Assembly: GCA_963707635.1 (NCBI GenBank)
Contig: OY970173.1
Coordinates: forward strand, 2,048,001 to 2,112,000
Direction: 5' to 3'
Length of the DNA: 64,000 nt
Origin: Candidatus Latescibacterota bacterium
GTDB taxonomy: Bacteria > Krumholzibacteriota > Krumholzibacteriia > WVZY01 > JAKEHA01
Position numbers and translations under genes: made by a program. Shown here in pieces: positions 34,378 through 46,771 of this stretch (positions are counted from its first letter, which is position 1; each line of letters starts with the position of its first letter). A model generated the notes under the pieces. That model worked only from the letters and a program-made list of their open reading frames with translations. It had not been told where the DNA came from and searched no databases.

Positions 34378-35775
34378 CTATTCCACCCGCTCCCCCGTCC
34401 CCGGTTCCTGAACAGGACCTTTTTCCGCCGCAAGAAGCTCCAGCAACACCGGTCGCAGATTGTGTAGCGGCGATTCGATGACGTGTTCGAGCAGCCGCTC
34501 GAGCGCGCGTCCAACGGCGGGGCCCGGCCCGATACCCAGCACGCGCATCACGTCCCCGCCGTCGACCTCGAGGTCGGCGACCCGCAGCGCGGCCCGCTCC
34601 CGCCGCTCGTAGGCCACCCGCTTCCGCAGGGCGTCGAGTTGCCCCAGCTCTCCGGCCATCCCGTCGACGTGCAGGCGAGCGCGGCAGTCGGCTTCGCGCA
34701 GCCGGAAAAGATCGTCCAGCAGGTCGGAACCGACCGTGCGCATGAATCGCCTCACCGTGGCCGCGCGCCATTCCGGCGCGTACCGATACATGTGGTGCCG
34801 CACCAGGCGCCGGCAGCAGGCGACGAACGACGTCGGATAGCGTAACCGCCCCAGGACCGCTTCGGTGATGTCGGCACTCACCAGCTCGTGGCCGTAGAAG
34901 ACGACGCGGGACCCGCGCTCGTCGGTGACCGATTGTCGCGCGTCCACCTTGCCGGTGTCGTGCAGGAGCGCCGCCCACCGCACGAGCAGGTTCTCGCGCG
35001 GCGCCGCGTCGCAGGTCTTTAGCGAGTGCCAGTAGACGTCGTCGGGATGATACTCGTTCTGGGTGACGCCCGCACACCGGGCGAGTTCGGGAAGCATCAC
35101 CGCCAGAGCGCCGGTCTGGTAGAGCAGGTGCCACGCGGCGCCGGGACGGTCGCACTGGGTCATGGTCTTGGTGCACTCGTCGCGAATCCGCTCGGCACTG
35201 ACGGTCGCGACGAGGGCGGCCGATTCTCGCATCCGCGCGCGTGTTTCCGCATCCACCTCGAGGTCGAATCGCGCGGTGAAGCGTGCGCCGCGCAGAATTC
35301 GCAGCGGATCCTCCACGAACGCGCGCTCGAAGATGGTGCGCAGCCGGCGGCGCACGAGATCGCCGGCGCCGCCGAAGGGGTCGACCCGATGTCCGTCCGG
35401 GACGCGCTCCGCGATGGCGTTGATGGTGAAGTCCCGGCGGCGAAGATCGTCTTCCACCGGCAGCCGCCAGTCCCACCGCACGTCGAAGTCACGGTGCCCC
35501 GGTCCCGTCGACGTCTCGGTGCGCGGGAAGACTATATCGTAGGTGACGCCGTCGTCCGCCGCCGTGAACTTGTAGACGCCGAACGCCTTGCCGACCAGCG
35601 CCACGGCACCGTGGCGCGCGAGGATGCCTTCCAGCACCTCAGGCGGCAGCCCGCGCACGAGCAGGTCGGTGTCGGGCAGCCCCGACAACCCGAGCAACCG
35701 GTCGCGCACCGCGCCACCCACCCGGTACAGCTCTCCGCGCGCGAGGATTTCGGACTGCCAGGCCGGGAGGTTCAC
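34378..35775 (-). CDS. cca: Class II tRNA nucleotidyltransferase (CCA-adding family) with HD domain
   Basis: VGGAVRD, DTD, EDDLRRRDFTINA, EDPLRILRGARF, ALLHDTGK, FYGHE. GTG at 35775. Confidence 0.88.
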   Translation of the reverse strand: MNLPAWQSEILARGELYRVGGAVRDRLLGLSGLPDTDLLVRGLPPEVLEGILARHGAVALVGKAFGVYKFTAADDGVTYDIVFPRTETSTGPGHRDFDVRWDWRLPVEDDLRRRDFTINAIAERVPDGHRVDPFGGAGDLVRRRLRTIFERAFVEDPLRILRGARFTARFDLEVDAETRARMRESAALVATVSAERIRDECTKTMTQCDRPGAAWHLLYQTGALAVMLPELARCAGVTQNEYHPDDVYWHSLKTCDAAPRENLLVRWAALLHDTGKVDARQSVTDERGSRVVFYGHELVSADITEAVLGRLRYPTSFVACCRRLVRHHMYRYAPEWRAATVRRFMRTVGSDLLDDLFRLREADCRARLHVDGMAGELGQLDALRKRVAYERRERAALRVADLEVDGGDVMRVLGIGPGPAVGRALERLLEHVIESPLHNLRPVLLELLAAEKGPVQEPGTGERVE

Positions 35776-36746
35776 GGCTGCCCGTCGCGCGGCCAGCGCA
35801 CCGGGTGGCGCACCCAGAGTGCCAGACCCGCCAGCGCGGTCAGGTATGTACCGATCAGCACGTAGACGATCGAAAACCCGACCGCTTCGGCGCTGCCGAC
35901 GCCGACCACGGAGAAGAAGTAGATGACGGTCGCGTCTCGCGTCCCCAGCCCCGAAATCGAGAACGGGATCAATTCGACCAGTGTGACGATGGGCATCATC
36001 AACACGATGTAGGCCGGTGACACCGGGATCGAGAGGAGAAGCGATACGTAGACCGCCAGCGCAAAGATGAGCGCCCAGCACACGAGCGTCATCGCGGCCA
36101 TCACGGCGATGCGGCGGCGCGACGCGCCATAGACGCGGAGTGCGTCGTAGAAGGAATGAAAGCCGGTCGACCACCGGTCGCGATGGCGGGCCGGTACCAG
36201 AACCGAAAAGGCGGGTTTCAAGAGCGCCCGCATCCACCGCCGGTTGGTGGCCATGACCGCGGCGGCGGCGATGGCGGCCGCCCCGAGCGCGAACAGCGGC
36301 GCCGACGGAATCTGGATGTACCGCTGCGAGAATATCAGGGTGGTCGCGACCCCGCCGACCAGGATGAAGCCGAGGTCCCAGAGGCGGTCGACGAAGACCG
36401 TGAGGAGTGTTTCCCCCAGCGGACGACCGGTGTCCGTGCGGAGATAGAGCGCGCGAAGGGCGTCGCCGGCCTTGCCCGGGGTCACCGACGACGCGAAGAA
36501 GCCGATCATCCACACCGACGTGCTGCGCCGCAGCCCGTATTCCATGCCCAGGGAGCGGATGACGTAGCGCCAGCGCGCCCCGCGCGCGACGGAAATGGCG
36601 GCGATGATGAGCGGCGCCCACAGGAGCTGGACCGGCTCGATCCCGCGCAGGATCCCGATGATCCGGGCGGGGCCGGTGCGCGCGACGATGGCGGCGAATA
36701 TCGCCAGGCCGACGAGCGGCATCAGGATCGCAAGCGCGCGCTTCAT
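35772..36746 (-). CDS. UPF0104 / lysylphosphatidylglycerol-synthase TM (flippase-like) protein
   Basis: RWRYVI, TPGKAGDALR, VDRLWD, IPFSISGLGTRD; multi-TM. Confidence 0.85.
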   Translation of the reverse strand: MKRALAILMPLVGLAIFAAIVARTGPARIIGILRGIEPVQLLWAPLIIAAISVARGARWRYVIRSLGMEYGLRRSTSVWMIGFFASSVTPGKAGDALRALYLRTDTGRPLGETLLTVFVDRLWDLGFILVGGVATTLIFSQRYIQIPSAPLFALGAAAIAAAAVMATNRRWMRALLKPAFSVLVPARHRDRWSTGFHSFYDALRVYGASRRRIAVMAAMTLVCWALIFALAVYVSLLLSIPVSPAYIVLMMPIVTLVELIPFSISGLGTRDATVIYFFSVVGVGSAEAVGFSIVYVLIGTYLTALAGLALWVRHPVRWPRDGQP

Positions 36747-36803
36747 GAGGTCGATGGTTCGGATCGGGAATGGGTCCGGGGCCGCGGCGAATGAACCGGC
36801 TGC

Positions 36804-36832
36804 TTGATTTCGCCGCCCAACCCCCCTATAAT
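36804..36832 (+). promoter_or_regulatory. sigma70-type promoter of the sat-cysC-AlkP operon
   Basis: TTGATT-N17-TATAAT, followed by AGGAG SD and GTG at 36864. Confidence 0.75.
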
Positions 36833-36863
36833 ACTCCAATCATAGCCCCTTAGGAGTCCATTT

Positions 36864-37082
36864 GTGAAGCACGACAAGGTCACGATCAAGATCCCCCGGC
36901 CCCTGTACAATCGAGTCCAGCAGCTCATCGACGACTCCGGATTCAATTCTCCGACCGACTTCATTGTATACGTGCTGCGCGACGTGTTGAGCGAGCGAGG
37001 CCTCGACCACGGGGACACGTTCACGCCGGAAGAGCTCGCCGCCATCAAGCAGAAGCTCCGGCGACTCGGATATCTCGACTAG
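36864..37082 (+). CDS. Ribbon-helix-helix (CopG-like) protein with C-terminal KLRRLGYL peptide
   Basis: Beta-strand VTIKIP, helix LYNRVQQLI, turn SGF, helix PTDFIVYVLR; tail EELAAIKQKLRRLGYLD. Confidence 0.8.
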   Translation: MKHDKVTIKIPRPLYNRVQQLIDDSGFNSPTDFIVYVLRDVLSERGLDHGDTFTPEELAAIKQKLRRLGYLD

Positions 37083-37106
37083 ACCCTCGGCGAGGAGGAC
37101 GTTCAC

Positions 37107-38267
37107 ATGATTGCACCACATGGCGGGACGCTGGTCTCGCGGATCGTTCCCGCGCGCGAACGAGACCCGCTGCGCGACCACGCCAGCACCCTGCCCGTCA
37201 TCGACCTCAACGCGCGCGAGTCGTCCGACCTGCTCTTGATCGCGATCGGCGGCATGAGTCCACTCGAGGGTTTCATGGGGCGGGCGGACTACGAGCACGT
37301 GCTCACCGACATGCGCCTCGCCTCCGGAATTCCGTGGTCGCTTCCGGTCACACTCTCGGTCGAGTCCGACACGATGCGCGGGCGCCGCACGCCCTTCGTC
37401 GCGTCCCTGCGCACTCCGGAGGGCAAGATCGTGGGCTTGATGACGGTGGACGAGCTCTTCGCCCCCGACAAGACGCGGGAGGCGGAACGAGCGCTGGGCA
37501 CGGCGGACCCCAGGCATCCCGGCGTGCAGTACCTCGACACGACCGGCGACCTGTACGCCGGCGGGAAGGTGTGGCTGCTCGAGCGCGTCAAGGACGGGCC
37601 GTTTGCCGCTCATGAGAGCGACCCGGCCGAGACACGTGCGCTCTTCGCCGAAAAGAAATGGGAGCGGGTGTGCGCGTTCCAGACCCGCAATCCGATCCAT
37701 CGCGCGCACGAGTATCTGATCAAGTGCGCGCTCGAAACCGTGGACGGGTTTCTGATCCACCCGGCGATGGGTGAAACCAAGTCCGACGACGTTCCGGCGG
37801 TGGTGCGGATGGAATGCTATCTCGCGCTGACGCGGAACTACTTCCCCGGTAGCCACGTCGCCCTGACGGTGTTTCCCTACGCGATGCGCTACGCGGGACC
37901 GCGCGAAGCGATCCTGCACGCGATCATTCGCAAGAACTACGGCTGCACGCATTTCATCGTGGGCCGCGACCACGCCGGCGTAGGCAACTATTACGGCACC
38001 TACGACGCCCAGCGCATCTTCGCGCAGTTCACCCCCGACGAGCTTGCGATCACGCCCGTGTTCTTCGAGCACTCGTTCTTCTGCACGCGTTGCGGCGGCA
38101 TGGCGTCGGAGAAGACGTGCCCGCACGGGGCGGAGAGCCGGGTGGCCTTGAGCGGCACCCGGGTGCGCGAGCTGCTCGCGAGCGGCGCGCCGCTGCCGGA
38201 CGAGTTCACCCGGCGCGAAGTGGCCGAGATCCTGCAGCGCCATTACGCCGGCGCGAAGGCGGGCTAG
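37107..38267 (+). CDS. sat: Sulfate adenylyltransferase (ATP sulfurylase)
   Basis: PHGGTL, SPLEGFM, FQTRNPIHRAHE, MRYAGPREA, NYGCTHFIVGRDHAG, LSGTRVR. Confidence 0.96.
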   Translation: MIAPHGGTLVSRIVPARERDPLRDHASTLPVIDLNARESSDLLLIAIGGMSPLEGFMGRADYEHVLTDMRLASGIPWSLPVTLSVESDTMRGRRTPFVASLRTPEGKIVGLMTVDELFAPDKTREAERALGTADPRHPGVQYLDTTGDLYAGGKVWLLERVKDGPFAAHESDPAETRALFAEKKWERVCAFQTRNPIHRAHEYLIKCALETVDGFLIHPAMGETKSDDVPAVVRMECYLALTRNYFPGSHVALTVFPYAMRYAGPREAILHAIIRKNYGCTHFIVGRDHAGVGNYYGTYDAQRIFAQFTPDELAITPVFFEHSFFCTRCGGMASEKTCPHGAESRVALSGTRVRELLASGAPLPDEFTRREVAEILQRHYAGAKAG

Positions 38268-38270
38268 CCC

Positions 38271-39650
38271 GTGTCGCGACGCCTGCTCGTCATCGGCCTG
38301 GATTGCGTCACACCTGAATTGTTCTTCGGGCCGTGGTTGGAGGAAATGCCGAACCTGCGCCGGCTGATCCAGAACGGAATCCAGGCGCGTTTGGTCTCGA
38401 CGGTCCCGCCCATCACGGTCCCCGCCTGGATGGCCATGATGACCTCCCACGACCCGGGCATGCTGGGCATTTACGGCTTTCGCAATCGCGCGCGACACGA
38501 CTACGAAGACACCTACACCGTCAACGCCACCCACGTGCAGGCCCGCACGGTGTGGAACATCCTTTCCAGAAACCGGCTGCGATCGATCGTCATGGGAGTT
38601 CCGCTGACGTACCCGCCCAAGCCGCTCAACGGCTTGATGGTCGGGTGTTTCCTGACCCCGGACTCCGCCGCCGAGTTCACCTATCCCCCGGAGCTCAAGC
38701 GGCGGCTCAACACGCTGGCGGGCGGCGAGTACATCATCGACGTGAAGGATTTTCGCAACGAGCGCAAGCAGGAGACACTCGAGCAGATCGAACGCATGAC
38801 CGAACGGCGGTTTCGAGCGTTCCGCGGCCTGCTCGCGGGCGAAGAGTGGGATTTCGCGATGATGGTCGAGATGGGACCGGACCGGCTGCACCACGCTTTC
38901 TGGCGCTACTCCGATTCGGGACACCGGCTGTACGAAAAGGGCAACCCGTTCGAGGACGTCATCCACCGGTACTACCTCGAGATGGACGCCGAAATCGGCC
39001 GCACCGTCGACGCGGTGCCCGCGGACACATCGGTGATCGTCGTTTCGGACCACGGCGCCCGGCGCATGGCCGGCGCGATCTGCGTCAACGAGTTCCTGAT
39101 TCGCGAGGGCTACCTGACGCTCAAGTCGTACCCGGACCACCCGACGCGGCTCACCCCGGATCTGGTGGACTGGGATCGTACGTTGGCGTGGGGCGACGGC
39201 GGTTACTACGCGCGCGTGTTTCTCAACGTGGCCGGGCGCGAGCCCCGCGGGCAGGTGGCCCCCGACGACGCCGCGCGCGTCGGCCGCGAACTCGCGGCCA
39301 AGCTGGAGGCGCTCGGCGACGAGAACGGGCGCCCGATCGGGACGCGCGTATTCTTTCCCGGGGAGATCTATCGCGAAACGCGTGGGGTGCCGCCCGACCT
39401 GATCGTGTATCTTGGCGACCTCGAGTGGCGCAGCGCCGGAACCGTCGGACACGGCCGCGTGCACGTCTTCGAGAACGACACCGGGCCGGACGACGCGAAC
39501 CACGCCCAGGAAGGCGTCTTCGTGTGGGCGAACCGGGGCAAGGCGCCCGCGGGTCCGGTCGCGCGGGTGTCGATCTACGACGTGGCGCCCTCGATACTCG
39601 ACTACTTTTCGATACCGGCTCCGCCGGAGATGATCGGGCACGTGATTTAG
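38271..39650 (+). CDS. Alkaline-phosphatase superfamily (NPP/Phosphodiest-like) protein 1, cytoplasmic, Thr nucleophile
   Basis: IGLDC, STVPPITVPAW, DRLHH, SDHG, DDANH; no signal peptide. Confidence 0.88.
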   Translation: MSRRLLVIGLDCVTPELFFGPWLEEMPNLRRLIQNGIQARLVSTVPPITVPAWMAMMTSHDPGMLGIYGFRNRARHDYEDTYTVNATHVQARTVWNILSRNRLRSIVMGVPLTYPPKPLNGLMVGCFLTPDSAAEFTYPPELKRRLNTLAGGEYIIDVKDFRNERKQETLEQIERMTERRFRAFRGLLAGEEWDFAMMVEMGPDRLHHAFWRYSDSGHRLYEKGNPFEDVIHRYYLEMDAEIGRTVDAVPADTSVIVVSDHGARRMAGAICVNEFLIREGYLTLKSYPDHPTRLTPDLVDWDRTLAWGDGGYYARVFLNVAGREPRGQVAPDDAARVGRELAAKLEALGDENGRPIGTRVFFPGEIYRETRGVPPDLIVYLGDLEWRSAGTVGHGRVHVFENDTGPDDANHAQEGVFVWANRGKAPAGPVARVSIYDVAPSILDYFSIPAPPEMIGHVI

Positions 39651-39725
39651 CGCAACGTGCTGCGGGCGAGCCGAACGGCGGCCACCCCGCGTCGTGCCAA
39701 ACCGTAATGCTTCAACGGAGGATCT

Positions 39726-40325
39726 ATGAAAGGCTTCACGCTGTGGTTCACCGGGCTACCCTCGTCGGGCAAGTCGACGCTGGCTCGTCGCGTGGAGGAG
39801 ATCCTCCTCGAGCGCGGGATGAACGTCGAGGTCCTGGACGGGGATGAAGTCCGCGAAAACTTGAGCAAGGGGCTCGGGTTCTCGAAGGAGGACCGCGACA
39901 CCAACATCCGGCGCATTGGCTTCGTCGCCAAGCTGCTCGCGCGCAACGGCGTGGTCGCCATCACGGCGGCGATTTCGCCCTACCGCGACGTGCGCGATGA
40001 AATGCGGCGCGCGATCGGACGCTTCGTCGAGGTGTACGTCGAGTGCCCCATCGACGTGCTCAAGGAACGAGACGTCAAGGGCCTGTACAAGAAGGCGCTG
40101 GCCGGCGAGATCAAGCATTTCACCGGCGTGGACGATCCCTACGAGCCGCCGCTCAAACCCGAAGTGGTCGTGCACAGCGACCGCGAGGGCGTGGACGAGA
40201 GCGTGGCCCGGATCGTGGGAACGCTCGAAGTGCTCGGGTACATCCCGCGGGCGTCCGGGGGCGACTTCTCCGCCGCCGAAGAGGAAACCATCAAACGCCG
40301 GCTTAAGGATCTCGGCTACATCTGA
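39726..40325 (+). CDS. cysC: Adenylyl-sulfate (APS) kinase with C-terminal RLKDLGYI extension
   Basis: [50 protein letters not shown]. Confidence 0.96.
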
Positions 40326-40330
40326 CCCCC

Positions 40331-41657
40331 ATGCTCAAGTGGTTTCAGCAACCGGCGGAGCGGGCCTGCGTCGTCGGACTCGACGGCGTTCCCTGCTCGA
40401 TGATCCGGCGCTTCACGCAATCCGGCGTCATGCCCCGCATGGCGGAAATCGTGGCCCGGGGCGCCCTGCGCGAAACCACCGTGTCGCTGCCCGAGATCTC
40501 TTCCGTCAGCTGGTCGTCGTTCATGACCGGCAAGAACCCGGGTGAGCACGGCATCTTCGGATTCACCGATTTGCACCCGGGGACCTACACGCAGAGCTTC
40601 CCGAGTTTTCGCGACCTCAAGTGCGACACCATCTGGGACCGCCTCGGCGAGCGCAAGATGCGCAGCGTCGTGATCAACCAGCCCGCGACCTATCCGGCGC
40701 GGCCGATCCACGGCGTGCTGGTGTCGGGCTTCGTCGCGGTTCACCTCGACCGCTCCGTGTTTCCCGCGCGCTATCTGCGCCTGCTGCGCGACATCAACTA
40801 CGAGATCGACCTCGACGCAGAGGTCGTGCGCGACAACCCGACGGCCCTGTTCCGCAAGCTGCACGAGTTGCTCATCGCGCGCGAGCGGTTGCTGGACGCG
40901 CTGTGGACGGAAGAGAAATGGAACCTGATGCAGGTGGTGGTCACCGGAACCGACCGCCTGCACCACTTCCTCTTCGACGCATACGACGACGCGGCCCACC
41001 CGGAGCACCAGGGTTTTCTCGACTACTATCGAGCGGTGGACGCGTTCGTCGGGCGCGTTTACGACCGCTTTGCCGCCTCCGGCGACGGGCGAAACTTCTT
41101 CGTCCTTTCCGACCACGGGTTTTGCCGCACGAGCCACGAGGTGAACGTCAACGCCGTCCTGGAGCAGAACGGGCTGCTCGCCTTCGCGACGGCCGACGCG
41201 ACCGGGCTGGACGGAATCTCCGAGCGCGCGGCGGCGTTCGCGCTGGACCCCGCGCGCCTCTATGTCCACCGCCGCGGCCGCTTCCCCCGCGGTGGGGTGG
41301 CCGAGGATCGCGTCGAGGGCGTCCTCGACGAGCTCACGGCCCTGTTCACGTCGCTGCGCGCACGAGGGAGAGCCGGTCGTGCGCCGGATCTTTCGCGGGC
41401 GCGATGTGTACCATGGCAGTGAAGCGGCCCGCGGTCCGGACCTGTTGCTCGTTCCCGTCAACGGGTTCGACCTGAAGGGGCGCGTGCGCGCGCGCGAGGT
41501 GGTGGCTCCCCGCCGTCTCCAGGGCATGCACACCTGGGACGACGCGTTCGTGGCCACGCTGCGCACGGACCTCGTCCCCCAGGGCCGCGAGCTGACGCTG
41601 CTGGACGTGCCGCGGATGATTCTCAAGAGCCTCCATGTCGAACCGATGGATTCGTAG
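40331..41657 (+). CDS. Alkaline-phosphatase superfamily protein 2, cytoplasmic, Ser nucleophile; apparent +1 frameshift near 41360
   Basis: VGLDG, SLPEISSVSW, DRLHH, SDHG in ORF 40331-41422. C-terminus (RRIFRGRDVYHG...GPDL...GMH...LLDVPRMIL) continues in ORF 41262-41657. Confidence 0.82.
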
Positions 41658-43689
41658 CATCGCCGTCGTGACGCTGGCGCTGTGGCCGACCGCGGCGTTC
41701 GCCTACATCGGGCCCGGCGCCGGCTTCGCGCTGGTGTCGTCGTTCGTGACGCTGGTGGTGGCGTTCGGGGCCGCGTTCTTTGCGGTGTTCGCGCTGCCGG
41801 TGCGCGTGCTCGTGCGGCAGTGGAAGCGGCGCCGCTCACTCCGGCACGCGCGCGTGAAGAAGGTGATCGTGCTCGGCCTGGACGGGCTCGACCCCGACAT
41901 CTGCGAGGCACTGTTCGCGCGCGGGGACCTTCCCCACCTGCGCAAACTCCGCGACGAAGGGACCTACCGCCGGCTGGGCACGTCGATGCCCGCCCTCTCG
42001 CCGGTCGCGTGGTCGACCTTCGCCACCGGCGCCGACCCGTCGCGACACGGAATATTCGACTTCGTGGCGCGCGATCCCCGCACCTACGCCCCGCACCTTT
42101 CGTCGAGCGAAGTGTACGGACGCACCCGTTTCATCGGCGTCGGACGGCTCCGGTTCCCGGTTTCGAGCGGCGGCGTGCGCGGATTCCGGCGCAGCCGGAC
42201 GTTCTGGCGGGTGCTTTCCGACCACGGCGTGGCCTCCTCCGTCCTGCGGGTTCCGATCACATTTCCGGTCGAGAAGATCGACGGTGTGATGATCGCCGGC
42301 ATGTGCGTGCCGGATCTGCGCGGCACCCAGGGATCGTTCACGTTCATCACCAGCGACTCCGAGTCGCCCCCGCGCGGCGGGGTCGTGATCGACGTGCCCG
42401 CGTCGGGAGGTGCCGTCGTCATCCCCGGCCCCGCGAGCCCGATCGACGGCAAGCCGATTTCGGTGCGTGTCGAGATCCGTCGCACACGCGACGCCGGCCA
42501 CGAGCTCGTCGTGGGGCGGGAGCGCGTGGCGCTGCGCGAGCGGGAATACACGCCCTGGGTGAGACTCGCCTTTCGCGCCGCGCGCGGGCTGACCGCCAGC
42601 GGCATCGCGCGCTTCTATCCCGTGCGCCTGGCCGACGGCCTCGCCATCTACGTGACGCCGATTCACGTCGACCCGGAGCACCCGGCGATTCCGATCTCGC
42701 ATCCGTCGGTGTTTTCAGTCTACCTGGCGAAGCTCATGGGGCCGTTCGGGACCCTCGGGCTGGCGGAGGACACCAGCGCGCTCAACGACGGAGCCATCGA
42801 CGAGCAGGCCTTTCTCGACCAGGCCTACGACCTGCACGCGGAGCGACGCGCCATGTGGGAGCACGCGCTGGCGCGGCTGCGCGGCGGCCTGGCGGTGTGC
42901 GTGTTCGATATCAGCGATCGCCTCCAGCACATGTTCTTTCGCTATCGCGACCCGGCCCATCCAGCCAACGCGGGCCGCGACGTGACGCGCCACGCGGACG
43001 CGATTCACGAGATGTACCGGCGCATGGACACCCTGGTCGGTGAGACGATCGCGCGGGTGGATCGCCACACGGCGCTGTTCGTGATGTCGGACCACGGCTT
43101 CAAGCAGTTCCGCCGCGGCGTCAACCTCAACGGGTGGCTCGCGCGCGCCGGGCTGCTCGCGGTCAAGGAAGGCGCCGGACCCGGCGAGTACCTGAGCGCA
43201 ATCGACTGGAGCCGGACCCGGGCGTACGCGCTGGGGTTGAGCGGCATCTACCTGAACCTGCGCGGCCGCGAGCGGGACGGCATCGTAGACGCCGCCGACG
43301 CGGACGGCCTGAAGCAAACTATCATTCGCGGGCTCACCGCGCTGCGCGATGGCGACGGTCCCGTCATCCGCCGGGTCGTCGACGTGGCGCGCGACCTCGA
43401 CGGTCCCTATCGCGATGGCGGGCCCGACCTGCTGCCGGGCTACGAGGACGGTTACCGCGTGTCGTGGGACTGCGCCAAGGGATCGGTGCGCGACGAGTTG
43501 TTCGAAGACAACACGAAGTGCTGGAGCGGCGATCATTGCGTGGACTCCGACATCGTCCCCGGCGTCCTGTTCACGAACGTCGCGCTGGACGAGGGGCCGA
43601 TCGGGCTGGAAGACGTCGGCCCGACCATTCTGGATCTCTTCGGCGTGCCGGTTCCTTCCTATATGACCGGACGGAGCCGGGCGAAATGA
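41635..43689 (+). CDS. Alkaline-phosphatase superfamily protein 3, membrane-anchored (signal-YIGPG-TM), Ser nucleophile
   Basis: AFA|YIGPGAG + TM + RQWKRRR; LGLDG, TSMPALSPVAW, DRLQH, SDHG, WSGDH. Confidence 0.88.
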   Translation: MSNRWIRSIAVVTLALWPTAAFAYIGPGAGFALVSSFVTLVVAFGAAFFAVFALPVRVLVRQWKRRRSLRHARVKKVIVLGLDGLDPDICEALFARGDLPHLRKLRDEGTYRRLGTSMPALSPVAWSTFATGADPSRHGIFDFVARDPRTYAPHLSSSEVYGRTRFIGVGRLRFPVSSGGVRGFRRSRTFWRVLSDHGVASSVLRVPITFPVEKIDGVMIAGMCVPDLRGTQGSFTFITSDSESPPRGGVVIDVPASGGAVVIPGPASPIDGKPISVRVEIRRTRDAGHELVVGRERVALREREYTPWVRLAFRAARGLTASGIARFYPVRLADGLAIYVTPIHVDPEHPAIPISHPSVFSVYLAKLMGPFGTLGLAEDTSALNDGAIDEQAFLDQAYDLHAERRAMWEHALARLRGGLAVCVFDISDRLQHMFFRYRDPAHPANAGRDVTRHADAIHEMYRRMDTLVGETIARVDRHTALFVMSDHGFKQFRRGVNLNGWLARAGLLAVKEGAGPGEYLSAIDWSRTRAYALGLSGIYLNLRGRERDGIVDAADADGLKQTIIRGLTALRDGDGPVIRRVVDVARDLDGPYRDGGPDLLPGYEDGYRVSWDCAKGSVRDELFEDNTKCWSGDHCVDSDIVPGVLFTNVALDEGPIGLEDVGPTILDLFGVPVPSYMTGRSRAK

Positions 43690-45626
43690 AGGGTCTCATC
43701 GGCGCGCTGCTGGTCGCGATGCTGGCGACGCCGGCCGCCGCGGCCGGCGAGCATCCCTCGGTGGTCGTGCTCGGCATCGACGGCATGGACCCCGATCTGC
43801 TGACAAGATTCATGTCCGAAGGGCGCATGCCGAATTTTTCCGCGTTGATCGCGGAGGGATCGTTCACGCGACTGGAGACGTCGATTCCCCCGCAGAGCCC
43901 GGTCGCGTGGTCGAACTTCATCACCGGCATGGACCCGGGCGGCCACGGCATCTTCGACTTCATCCACCGCGACCCCGCCACTTATACCCCGGTGTTTTCC
44001 GCCGCCGACATCGAGGAGCCGTCGAAGACTCTCTCACTCGGCGACTGGCTGCTCCCCTTGTCGGGGGGCGGCACGGTGCTGCTGCGCAAGGGCGAGGCGT
44101 TCTGGCAGGTGCTGGACCGCGCGGGAATTCCGTGCACGGTAATCCGCGTGCCGGCCAACTATCCACCTGCGAAGACGTCGGCGCGCACGCTCTCGGGGAT
44201 GGGCACACCGGACCTGCTCGGGAGCTACGGCACCTTTACGCTCTACACCGACGACGACATATGGCGCGGCGCCCACGTGAGCGGCGGGCGCGTGGTGATG
44301 GTCGACCGGGTGGACGACCGGGCGCGAATTCAGATCGAGGGGCCGAAGAACTCGTTGCGCAAGAGCCAGCCGACGCTGGCGCGGGAAGCCGTGGTCGACG
44401 TCGACCCCGAGCACGATGCGGCCCGGATCGCGGTCGGTGGCGAGGAGATCGTGCTCCACGCCGCAGAGTGGAGCGGCTGGGTCCCCATCGACTTCGACGT
44501 GCTCGGGCCGGTGAAGAAGCTCCGCGGCATGTGTCGATTCTATTTGAAGAGCGTGCGCCCGTCACTCCAGCTCTACGTGTCGCCTCTGAACCTAGACCCG
44601 CTGCACCCGGCGCTTCCCATCTCCACACCCGAAGACTATTGCGCCGACCTGGCGCGGCGGGTCGGGCGCTACTACACGCAGGGGATCGCGGAAGACACCA
44701 AGGCGCTCGAAGCGGGCGCGCTGAACGACGCGGAGTTCGTGGAGCTGACCGATACGCTGCTCTCGGAGCGCGAGCGCATGCTCGACGCGGTCCTCTCGGA
44801 TTATCGCGACGGCTTCTTGTTCTTCTACGTGTCGACCATCGACCAGTCGTGCCACGCCCTGTGGCGCAATGCGGACGCGGCGCACCCCGCCCACCCGGCG
44901 GACGGCGCGTTCGCGGACCGCTTCGCGACCCTCTACGCAGAAATGGATCGCGTGCTGGGAACGATTCGCGCGCGTATTCCCCGCGACGCCACCATGATCG
45001 TCATGTCCGACCACGGCTTTGCGCCCTACTACCAGAAGGTGCACTTGAACACCTGGCTGTACCGCAACGGGTACCTCGCCCTCGTGCGTGCGGACGAACC
45101 CGGGGGCCCGCTGTTCGGCAACGTGTTTTGGCGCCGCACGCGGGCCTACGCGGCGGGCCTCAACGGGCTCTACCTGAACGTGGCCGGCCGGGAGGCGCGC
45201 GGGATCGTCGCGCGCGGCGCGGAATACGACGATCTCCTGGCCGAGATCGCGACGAAGCTGCTCGAGTTTCGCGACCCCGAAAACGGCGAACGGGTGGTGA
45301 CGACCGTCTATCGGGCCCGCGACGTCTACCACGGATCGGAGGTGGGTGCGGCTCCCGACCTGATCGTGGGGTACAATCGTGGGTACCGGTCGAGCGACGA
45401 TTCGGCGCTGGGGACGGTCACCTCGGAGCTGCTGACCCCCAACCTCGGCAAATGGACCGGCGACCATTGCATGGACCATCACCTCGTGCCCGGAATCCTG
45501 GTGTGCAACCGGCCGCTGCGCGCGGGCGACCCGCGGCTGATCGACCTGCCCGTCACGATCCTGGCGCTGTTCGGCGTGGACGCGCCGGCCGCGATGACGG
45601 GCCGGGCGCTGATCGACACCCCCTGA
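43686..45626 (+). CDS. Alkaline-phosphatase superfamily protein 4, Sec signal peptide, Ser nucleophile
   Basis: MKGLIGALLVAMLATPAAAA|; LGIDG, TSIPPQSPVAW, DQSCH, SDHG, WTGDH. ATGA overlap with protein 3, and clearly paralogous to it. Confidence 0.88.
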   Translation: MKGLIGALLVAMLATPAAAAGEHPSVVVLGIDGMDPDLLTRFMSEGRMPNFSALIAEGSFTRLETSIPPQSPVAWSNFITGMDPGGHGIFDFIHRDPATYTPVFSAADIEEPSKTLSLGDWLLPLSGGGTVLLRKGEAFWQVLDRAGIPCTVIRVPANYPPAKTSARTLSGMGTPDLLGSYGTFTLYTDDDIWRGAHVSGGRVVMVDRVDDRARIQIEGPKNSLRKSQPTLAREAVVDVDPEHDAARIAVGGEEIVLHAAEWSGWVPIDFDVLGPVKKLRGMCRFYLKSVRPSLQLYVSPLNLDPLHPALPISTPEDYCADLARRVGRYYTQGIAEDTKALEAGALNDAEFVELTDTLLSERERMLDAVLSDYRDGFLFFYVSTIDQSCHALWRNADAAHPAHPADGAFADRFATLYAEMDRVLGTIRARIPRDATMIVMSDHGFAPYYQKVHLNTWLYRNGYLALVRADEPGGPLFGNVFWRRTRAYAAGLNGLYLNVAGREARGIVARGAEYDDLLAEIATKLLEFRDPENGERVVTTVYRARDVYHGSEVGAAPDLIVGYNRGYRSSDDSALGTVTSELLTPNLGKWTGDHCMDHHLVPGILVCNRPLRAGDPRLIDLPVTILALFGVDAPAAMTGRALIDTP

Positions 45627-45646
45627 CGGAATCAAAGGAGACACCC

Positions 45647-45838
45647 ATGTTCGGAAAGAATCGAGTTACCCTCGAAAAGGATCTGTTCGAGCGCGTGCGC
45701 GCGGCCTCGGAGAAGGCAGGGTACGCGTCGGCCGACGAGTTCGTCGCCCACGTGCTCGAACGCGAGCTCGCGAAAACGGAAGCGGGGTCGAGCGGCGACG
45801 TGAAGAAGCAGCTCGAGGGCCTCGGCTACATTTCCTGA
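45647..45838 (+). CDS. Second small RHH-like protein with C-terminal QLEGLGYI peptide
   Basis: AAGGAG SD; MFGKNRVTLEKDLFERVRAASEKAGYASADEFVAHVLERELAKTEAGSSGDVKKQLEGLGYIS. Not called separately in the ORF track. Confidence 0.78.
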   Translation: MFGKNRVTLEKDLFERVRAASEKAGYASADEFVAHVLERELAKTEAGSSGDVKKQLEGLGYIS

Positions 45839-45839
45839 C

Positions 45840-46661
45840 GTGTTCCTGCTCGCGCGCATCGTGACCCTCGTCTTCGACGCGCTGGTGGCGCCGTTCGGCT
45901 CCCATCGGCTCGCCGCGCTGCTGGCGGTTTCCCTGCTGGGCGGGGCAATGCTCGCGCTGGTTTTTCGCGCGACCTCGAAGCAGGCCGCCATCGGCCGTTC
46001 GCGCGAGCGGTTCAAGGCGCGGATACTCGAGATGCGTCTCTACCCGGACGACATCGTCCTGATCACGCGCGCGTTCGGGGGCGCACTCGCCGCGCAGGGT
46101 GCGTATCTCAAGTACGCCGCGCCCGGGATCCTGGCAGCGGTCGTGCTCGCCGCCCCGCTGTTCGTACAACTCGAGCAGCGCTTCGCCTCCCGCGCGCTCC
46201 CGCCCGGGAGCCGCACGCTGGTCACGGCGACGCTGGCGGAGGGCACCGACCCGCGCGCGGTCGTCACCTCGCTTTCCGGACCCGCCGGGACCGAGGTGGA
46301 CGCACGCTCGCTGCGCGCGAGGGCATCGCGCGACGTCGTGTGGGTCGTGGATGTCCGGGAGCGCGGCCGCCACGAGATGGAGCTCACGCTGGGAGCGCAG
46401 GCGTATCGATTCCCCATCGAGGCGAAGGAATCGTGCCGCGCGATCGGTCGACGACGAAGCGCGGGTTCCTGGGTCGACGCGGGGACGCAGGTCGGGCTGC
46501 CCGGGATCGCGGCGGGGGGCCCCATAGCAGGGGTTCGCATCCATTACCCGGCCGCGCACTATCGACTGCTGGGGATCGGGATGAACTGGCTGGCTGTATT
46601 CCTGATCGGGACTCTGGTGGGCGCGGTCCTGCCGGCGCGGCTGTTGAGAATCCACCTCTAG
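45840..46661 (+). CDS. Membrane protein, possibly DUF106/EMC3/TMCO1-like, with an inserted beta-rich domain
   Basis: Amphipathic N-helix (FDALVAPF), TM1, basic coiled region, TM2, about 120-aa soluble segment, C-terminal TM WLAVFLIGTLVG...RLLRI. Confidence 0.6.
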   Translation: MFLLARIVTLVFDALVAPFGSHRLAALLAVSLLGGAMLALVFRATSKQAAIGRSRERFKARILEMRLYPDDIVLITRAFGGALAAQGAYLKYAAPGILAAVVLAAPLFVQLEQRFASRALPPGSRTLVTATLAEGTDPRAVVTSLSGPAGTEVDARSLRARASRDVVWVVDVRERGRHEMELTLGAQAYRFPIEAKESCRAIGRRRSAGSWVDAGTQVGLPGIAAGGPIAGVRIHYPAAHYRLLGIGMNWLAVFLIGTLVGAVLPARLLRIHL

Positions 46662-46678: not shown

Positions 46679-46771
46679 TGGTGCCGGAGGCCGGAGTCGA
46701 ACCGGCACGGGGCTTTCAAAGGCCCCAGCGGATTTTAAGTCCGCTGCGTCTACCAATTCCGCCACTCCGGC
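46679..46771 (-). tRNA. tRNA-Leu (TAA)
   Basis: GCCGGAG...GCGGA-CT-TAA-AA-TCCGC, long variable arm, GGTTCGACTCC, CTCCGGC-A-CCA. Confidence 0.96.

Follow-up and report, generated by a model that had tools for sequence, protein, structure and literature searches.

Many prokaryotes make 3'-phosphoadenosine 5'-phosphosulfate (PAPS) without a clear consumer. The window analysed here, a stretch of 64,000 nucleotides from the genome of a Candidatus Latescibacterota bacterium (contig OY970173.1, positions 2,048,001 to 2,112,000), contains an operon in which the two genes of PAPS synthesis, sat and cysC, are packed together with four genes encoding paralogous enzymes of the alkaline phosphatase (AlkP) superfamily. 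An earlier sequence-only reading of this stretch proposed that these enzymes transfer sulfate from PAPS or adenosine 5'-phosphosulfate (APS) to an acceptor molecule. Here, we describe the operon, the distribution of its enzymes across phyla, a C-terminal tail carried by their neighbours, and a conserved membrane module, and we weigh a sulfate relay against its rivals.

Organization of the operon

The operon lies on the plus strand at positions 36864-46661 of the window, in the order RHH1-sat-AlkP1-cysC-AlkP2-AlkP3-AlkP4-RHH2-membrane gene, with the following features.

35772-36746, minus strand: UPF0104 (PF03706) flippase-like membrane protein, divergent from the operon (PF03706 E 2e-44, TIGR00374); the ATG at 36746, from the gene caller, is the likely start
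36804-36832, plus strand: sigma70-like promoter, TTGATT-17-TATAAT, with 10/12 matches, a consensus match only
36864-37082, plus strand: RHH1, 72 amino acids, probable ribbon-helix-helix (RHH) fold, with an acidic-helix LxxLGY tail at its end
37107-38267, plus strand: sat, ATP sulfurylase by family match, sole copy found in the genome
38271-39650, plus strand: AlkP1, soluble enzyme of the nucleotide pyrophosphatase/phosphodiesterase (NPP) fold (COG3379-type; PF01663 and structure model), Thr49, without a tail of its own
39726-40325, plus strand: cysC, APS kinase by family match with an appended C-terminal tail, sole copy found in the genome
40331-41657, plus strand: AlkP2, soluble paralogue (PF01663), Ser57, with a +1 frameshift near 41356 in the assembly
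41635-43689, plus strand: AlkP3, with a signal peptide, the motif Y-I-G-P-G-A-G (41704-41724), one transmembrane (TM) helix and a polybasic stop, Ser122
43686-45626, plus strand: AlkP4, paralogue of AlkP3 with an export leader, predicted periplasmic, Ser71, without a tail
45647-45838, plus strand: RHH2, 63 amino acids, NikR/CopG-like (NikR E 0.005), with an LxxLGY tail at its end
45840-46661, plus strand: Oxa1/DUF106 (Ylp1/TMCO1-like) membrane protein with an inserted Ig-like external domain
46679-46771, minus strand: tRNA-Leu(TAA), convergent, bounding the end of the operon

The gene order and tight packing described in the sequence-only reading are borne out, as are its Sat and CysC (confirmed by family matches), its four AlkP paralogues (all of which match PF01663), its divergent UPF0104 gene, and its sigma70 promoter, for which a scan for such sites found three against 0.1 expected. 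Its two RHH labels stand less well, since RHH2 matches NikR only weakly and RHH1 matches no RHH family. Beyond what that reading described are the leaders of AlkP3 and AlkP4, the LxxLGY tails, and the DUF106/Oxa1-like character of the membrane protein.

The operon is real and is conserved across its order. AlkP1 is matched in 30 of the 31 genomes of the order, and the nearest named loci belong to Krumholzibacteriia/Latescibacterota. Both the AlkP1-cysC-AlkP2 arrangement and the divergent UPF0104 gene are retained in all of 12 relatives' loci, the tailed RHH1 in ten and sat in nine, and the block from AlkP3 to the membrane gene is present in all nine relatives' loci with contigs reaching that far. 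The setting is a housekeeping region with no GC shift: a CCA/poly(A)-polymerase HD-family gene (window 34378-35775, minus strand) overlaps the end of the UPF0104 gene and is followed by dnaK and thrS.

The AlkP paralogues belong to the nucleotide pyrophosphatase branch

AlkP1 through AlkP4 score 110-152 bits against PF01663 (cut-off 23) and fall below the cut-off of PF00884, the sulfatase branch. The structure model of AlkP1 (predicted local distance difference test 96.5) has Xac NPP as its best structural match (E 2e-17, TM-score about 0.58); according to this model, AlkP1 has a nucleotide pyrophosphatase fold. Each of the four paralogues retains the two-metal ligands (GxD, DxxxH, SDHG, and a late His) and a Thr/Ser nucleophile within P-x-x-[ST]-x-x-x-W (T49 in AlkP1, S57 in AlkP2, S122 in AlkP3, and S71 in AlkP4), and none contains the [CS]xPxR sulfatase motif, all as previously read from the sequence; the nucleophile position is T or S in 114/124, 13/13, and 42/42 aligned rows. 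The fold, the metal ligands, and the nucleophile are shared with Xac NPP and the ENPP family, from which the enzymes of the window differ (11-16% identity) in their PxxT/SxxxW and GI[FY]xF motifs, their APS-kinase dependence, the associated tail, and their membrane partners. The nucleotide pyrophosphatases work through covalent Thr intermediates and have some aryl sulfatase activity, which by analogy makes attack at sulfur by the AlkP enzymes plausible; for this group of pyrophosphatases and phosphodiesterases, attack at phosphorus is the norm.

For AlkP2, the sequence-only reading needs a correction. An extra base near 41356 interrupts the reading frame, and the late His is encoded in the second frame, past the frameshift. 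The copies of relatives are open (440-497 amino acids in the 11 untruncated copies among the 12 loci), and the extra base is missing from one near-relative contig, the sole informative record (179 bases, depth 2.3), which makes an assembly error or a recent mutation the likely cause. A fifth, tail-less COG3379-like gene is found elsewhere in the host genome (C1:982887-984428, locus L002), directly upstream of apparent glycosyltransferase and sugar-nucleotide genes that were named by eye.

The AlkP family is linked to APS kinase across phyla

The sequence-only reading had suggested checking whether the family co-occurs with sat and cysC. In this check, the AlkP family proved as closely tied to APS kinase as the canonical sulfotransferases are; it is, in addition, fused to Sat and CysC. 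In an even sample of Chloroflexota, the phylum of genome G055 (139 genomes after the centre and one unpublished genome were dropped), cysC is present in 25/25 genomes with the AlkP1 family versus 46/114 without it; for comparison, cysC is present in 22 of 23 genomes bearing a PF13469 sulfotransferase, the positive control. Among 118 genomes of Acidobacteriota, the phylum of G032, cysC is present in all 33 with a close AlkP4, by a score threshold chosen after a gap was seen in the scores, versus 45 of the 85 others (18/31 with distant AlkP4 relatives, 5/9 with an intermediate class, and 22/45 without a match). The distant class, found in 31/118 genomes, matches at E 1e-118 to 1e-144 from about position 100 on. 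The kinase gene lies within about 5 kb of the module that contains AlkP4 in 11 of the 33 close-AlkP4 genomes; cysH is absent from 29 of them and all three consumer families (cysH, PF13469, and PF00685) from four. Furthermore, 11 of 22 genomes preselected as lacking PF13469 also lack PF00685, and eight of these 11 lack cysH as well, the other three being outside the cysH count.

For AlkP1, we took the 80 top-scoring loci among those reached by a scan of many phyla, using 22 alignment rows because the 124-row alignment was too diverse. The genomes of these loci contain cysC in 46 of the 50 cases checked. Five of the 80 loci encode a Sat-AlkP1 fusion, and 41 include a glycosyltransferase, epimerase, or flippase. 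Fusions among 150 AlkP1 representatives comprise CysC-AlkP1-tail, Sat-AlkP1, AlkP1-pyruvate kinase-Sat, and AlkP1-glycosyltransferase family 2 (GT2). The pyruvate-kinase barrel occurs in P0203 and P0262, one with Sat and the other with a tail, and is possibly an ATP supply for PAPS synthesis. No sulfotransferase match was found in 80 + 80 loci, a weak negative with a single protein as query. The link of the family to APS kinase is firm; productive consumption of PAPS by the AlkP enzymes is an inference.

An LxxLGY tail accompanies the AlkP enzymes

Only seven of 35,274 stop-to-stop frames in the host genome end in LxxLGY: RHH1, CysC, RHH2, three other leader-bearing AlkP proteins, and one unrelated frame. 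Within the operon the tail is absent from AlkP1-4 and is carried by three of their neighbours, RHH1, CysC, and RHH2. A profile search with the tail found no solved relative. In the Chloroflexota sample, an appended CysC tail is present in 12/25 AlkP-positive versus 0/46 AlkP-negative genomes, a count in which six fusion frames ran past the fetched stretch with their ends unseen; that the tail is appended to CysC only in genomes with the AlkP enzyme is a new observation. A single regular-expression hit among the AlkP-negative genomes (L175) was rejected as the kinase's own last helix.

Where a stand-alone CysC lies beside AlkP1, it is tailed in 24 of 25 cases. The tail is found in cis on 17/150 distant AlkP1 representatives; in loci of this kind CysC is never tailed (0/9), nor are the unlinked kinases of their genomes (0/8). 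In two loci, only a CysC-like C-terminal remnant with the tail remains beside AlkP1, and in one an untailed RHH1 lies beside a tailed AlkP1. LxxLGY is often found in the last helix of the kinase core as well (window 40215-40322; loci L127-L225), and the appended tail may therefore be a duplicate of that helix. A CysD-like protein in L275 ends in KLRSLGYM.

The tail profile also found a 91-amino-acid membrane protein of the host (C1:569926-570201, plus strand) with an operon-like tail, LDEIRARLRAMGYLE, a possible further tail donor. Additionally, five AlkP-superfamily proteins of the host combine an N-terminal leader with an LxxLGY helix (C1:640955-642232, 645039-646445, 3084047-3085492, and 2930597-2935050). 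The helix is terminal in three of them, and in a near-duplicate pair further domains follow it (tetratricopeptide repeats, one scanned). These five proteins are candidate periplasmic clients of the membrane module.

AlkP3 and AlkP4 are part of a conserved membrane module

A conserved module, newly recognized here, consists of AlkP3, AlkP4, RHH2, and the membrane gene. Eighty metagenome loci of the module were collected, most of them short and 35 long enough to judge; of these 35 loci with AlkP3, 33 also have the membrane gene, 31 a tailed RHH, 30 AlkP4, and 28 the full set. The module often stands apart from sat and cysC, cysC being present in 12 of the 80 loci. A count of YIGPGAGF in these loci was rejected as evidence, the motif being one of the two search patterns. 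In L232, L258, L262, and L284, a short (about 280-310 amino acids) sulfatase-like protein with WTAPSH takes the usual place of AlkP2, upstream of AlkP3.

The N-terminal Tyr of AlkP3 is predicted to be external and its catalytic domain cytoplasmic. Y24 and G26-F31 are invariant in 13/13 aligned copies, all reached via AlkP1 and excluding frameshifted copies, and several homologues have almost no leader before YIGPG. An Atlas search with the AlkP3 N-terminus found nothing useful. An export-type leader is present in all 52 AlkP4 homologues inspected (29 twin-arginine-like by a loose pattern, 13 lipobox-like, and 10 otherwise hydrophobic, classed by pattern and by eye). Such changes of export route between homologues are good evidence that the protein lies outside, and AlkP4 is predicted to be exported and periplasmic. 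The single compartment pictured by the sequence-only reading thus gives way to one in which AlkP4 is predicted to lie away from cytoplasmic PAPS.

The membrane protein is modelled as TM1, a coiled coil, TM2, an external loop, and a C-terminal TM3. Its profile matches MJ0480/Ylp1 over TM1-coil-TM2 (E 4.3e-5), with a weak second stretch at TM3. The top full-length match of the model is 7tut_8, a multipass translocon chain that we take to be TMCO1 (Z 10.7, under the 13 advised for helical bundles; root-mean-square deviation 3.9; 135 aligned), and YidC is also among the matches (Z 7.2). Foldseek returned no match under E 0.001, and none of 41 members of the protein family matched PF01956 (DUF106) at E 0.1; in its Atlas neighbour cluster, PF01956 is found in 17% of members (score 0.84). 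By its model the protein resembles the Oxa1/DUF106 family, sharing its layout with the DUF106 branch (Ylp1/MJ0480, TMCO1, EMC3), from which it differs in being bacterial, in its inserted Ig-like domain, and in being tied to one enzyme module rather than to general insertion. Proteins of the Oxa1 family possess a lipid-exposed hydrophilic groove (PMC5868721).

PAPS supply and outlets in the host genome

The host genome, a single contig with 96% completeness, has one sat and one cysC. Family searches found no PAPS reductase (PF01507) and no sulfite reductase (PF01077, presumably standing for both CysI and DsrAB; aprAB was not searched by name), so that the lack of sulfate-reduction genes read from the operon extends across the genome in these two families. 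The accompanying claim that sulfotransferases are lacking holds for the operon, in which no PF00685 or PF13469 gene was found, and fails for the genome: PF00685 and PF05935 were not found there, but a PF13469 gene is present at C1:1,882,027, and we rejected the claim for the genome as a whole. This gene, the genome's conventional PAPS consumer, is preceded in locus L001 (C1:1879401-1882839) by genes for a methyltransferase, a GNAT protein, and a second methyltransferase. A search with PF09037 matched neither the host nor any control genome and so carries no weight. PAPS in the host most likely serves sulfation, though at least one of its consumers is conventional.

No family I pyrophosphatase (PF00719) was found in the host genome either, which may leave room for a role in removing pyrophosphate (PPi). 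The AlkP proteins would then be helper hydrolases that remove PPi, 3'-phosphoadenosine 5'-phosphate (PAP), or surplus APS/PAPS on behalf of Sat, CysC, and sulfotransferases encoded elsewhere. A cluster of Pyrococcus yayanosii in the order copG-sat-pApase-type I phosphodiesterase-cysC is described with no identified sulfotransferase or reductase, and PPi degradation was put forward there as a speculation for PYCH_17550 (PMC8268124). Like the operon, it combines Sat and CysC with a CopG-type regulator and a type I phosphodiesterase, but it has a single AlkP gene and a DHH pApase; the operon has four paralogues, lacks a pApase, and includes a membrane-spanning module. The NPP fold of AlkP1, the Sat fusions, which would suit a PPi sink, and the canonical sulfotransferases common in carrier genomes are also consistent with hydrolysis. 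A proton-pumping pyrophosphatase is nevertheless present in the host genome, and a helper role leaves unexplained the four paralogues, the exported member, the invariant external Tyr, the dedicated membrane protein, and the glycosyltransferase fusions, as well as the genomes that have cysC and none of the consumers searched for. We regard this explanation as unlikely, though a serious contender.

A proposed model for sulfate transfer and relay across the membrane

Agl7 of Haloferax volcanii carries a sulfatase-like annotation. Its deletion removes sulfation (PMC3892788). In Halobacterium salinarum, Agl30 and Agl31 (VNG1056C and VNG1057C), annotated as alkaline phosphatase domain proteins, one membrane-bound and one soluble, are required for the sulfation of glycans and suffice for it in a foreign host, and the primers used to clone them encode C-terminal LEDLGYL and LEELGYT (PMC11980604). 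The enzymes of the window, like Agl30/31, are members of the AlkP superfamily; Agl30/31 resemble the sulfatase branch and, by their primers, bear the tail in cis, whereas the window enzymes are of the NPP branch (PF01663) and tail-less and share an operon with sat and cysC; one of them is predicted to be exported, and an Oxa1-like protein is their partner. AlkP-fold sulfotransferases are a barely known kind that has a published precedent, and the membrane module would, if demonstrated, be new in kind.

We think it likely that at least some of the AlkP paralogues transfer sulfate. Of the earlier proposal of transfer from PAPS or APS, the link to PAPS stands and AlkP enzymes have a genetic precedent. 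The proposal was to yield if a canonical sulfotransferase elsewhere accounted for PAPS use; the host PF13469 gene, with counterparts in much of the order, goes part of the way towards this. The best explanation of the whole, evenly poised between right and wrong, is sulfate transfer coupled to a relay across the membrane that would sulfate envelope molecules outside. It would bring together the enzyme inside, its paralogue outside, the grooved membrane protein, and the two invariant terminal Tyr residues, all of them APS-kinase-dependent. In the first step, a metal-activated Thr/Ser of a cytoplasmic AlkP enzyme would attack the sulfur of PAPS to give a sulfo-enzyme. The LxxLGY helix, supplied in trans by CysC to AlkP1 and by RHH2 to AlkP3, would dock on the enzyme and tie kinase to consumer. 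AlkP3 would then sulfate a membrane-near carrier, most simply a Tyr (that of the tail or its own external N-terminal Tyr), with passage through the Oxa1-type groove. Finally, exported AlkP4 would take the aryl sulfate and pass it to a periplasmic glycan, a lipid-linked glycan, or a tailed AlkP client. Such a relay would parallel, by analogy only, the MBOAT-SGNH acyl shuttles DltB-DltX-DltD and PatA-PatB, in which the donor is cytoplasmic, an invariant Tyr belongs to a short terminal motif (carried in cis or by a microprotein), and the outside enzyme forms a Ser intermediate (PMC12148441); there is no homology, and the folds, the transferred group, and the membrane component all differ.

Several observations weigh against this model. 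The AlkP1 fold is that of phosphodiesterases, and the topology of AlkP3 and AlkP4, in contrast to the observed gene content, folds, conservation, co-occurrence, and fusions, is a prediction from sequence patterns rather than from a dedicated predictor. The host PF13469 gene lies about 200 kb from the operon, and PF13469 is present in 26/31 genomes of the order and in 23/33 module-bearing Acidobacteriota. In the Chloroflexota subset without cysH and PF13469, cysC is found in 10/10 carriers versus 10/70 non-carriers, but six of these ten carriers have a PF00685 gene and four lack all three families, and we rejected the comparison as clean evidence because it is overstated. Only 34/80 AlkP1 loci (15/42 long ones) have sat or cysC in the fetched flanks. 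The related genomes in all of these counts are not independent, so that Fisher P values overstate the association, and co-occurrence does not tell a transferase from a helper hydrolase. LxxLGY is moreover frequent as a helix end, with 42 internal occurrences; in 11 long loci AlkP1 is tail-less and the flanks contain no tail; and in tail-less carriers the unlinked CysC was tailed in 0/12 genomes fetched, by which the notion that CysC is always the tail donor was rejected. AlkP4 is absent from 5/35 long module loci.

Alternatively, AlkP1-3 may be sulfotransferases that work without a tyrosine relay and, like Agl30/31, add sulfate to a lipid or a lipid-linked glycan at the inner face of the membrane. 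The Oxa1-like protein would insert AlkP3 or scramble lipid, the UPF0104 protein would flip the product, AlkP4 would act on the flipped lipid, and the tail would be a nucleotide lid. The substrate of Agl30/31 is a dolichol-linked glycan (PMC11980604), Oxa1-family proteins include both insertases (PMC5868721) and scramblases (PMC11047089), and the divergent UPF0104 gene of the relatives, the near lack of a leader in several AlkP3 homologues, and the LxxLGY ends of CysD and of the CysC core helix would all suit this arrangement. It leaves the invariance of the external Tyr of AlkP3 unexplained, the exported AlkP proteins of the host carry the tail where a PAPS lid would be useless, and UPF0104 is found in only 2/80 module loci. 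Together with helper hydrolysis it is the main rival to the relay, and we consider it rather unlikely.

A third possibility is that the enzymes attack phosphorus and carry out (phospho)adenylyl transfer, or that the pathway runs in reverse, the exported pair stripping sulfate esters outside and feeding sulfate inward. The full NPP-type two-metal ligand set with its Thr/Ser and the predicted export of AlkP4, reminiscent of a scavenging enzyme, are compatible with this. The host, however, has no sulfate reduction that our searches could find to use scavenged sulfate, nearly all module-bearing Acidobacteriota lack cysH, and the dependence on APS kinase is strict; we hold both forms to be highly improbable.

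The relay may be extended to a widespread and undescribed export of Tyr-O-sulfate, running from PAPS through a cytoplasmic AlkP enzyme, the Oxa1-type groove, the N-terminal Tyr of AlkP3, and AlkP4 to the LxxLGY Tyr of exported 'sulfatase-like' proteins. We consider this version quite doubtful; if true, those proteins would be a large family of mis-annotated periplasmic sulfotransferases. Literature searches, in which most subscription papers were out of reach, returned no description of the COG3379-type family, the LxxLGY tail, or the membrane module. COG3379 proteins form 2,653 clusters at 50% identity (E up to 1e-30), and are not known to have a tested function; were sulfate transfer correct, a large family would be mis-annotated and bacterial surface sulfation would be commoner than counts of sulfotransferases suggest. 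The module, which would represent recruitment of an Oxa1-type protein to group transfer, bears on sulfation outside the cytoplasm of diderm cells, in a setting where no PAPS is expected, and it is present at the close-match level in 33/118 sampled Acidobacteriota genomes.

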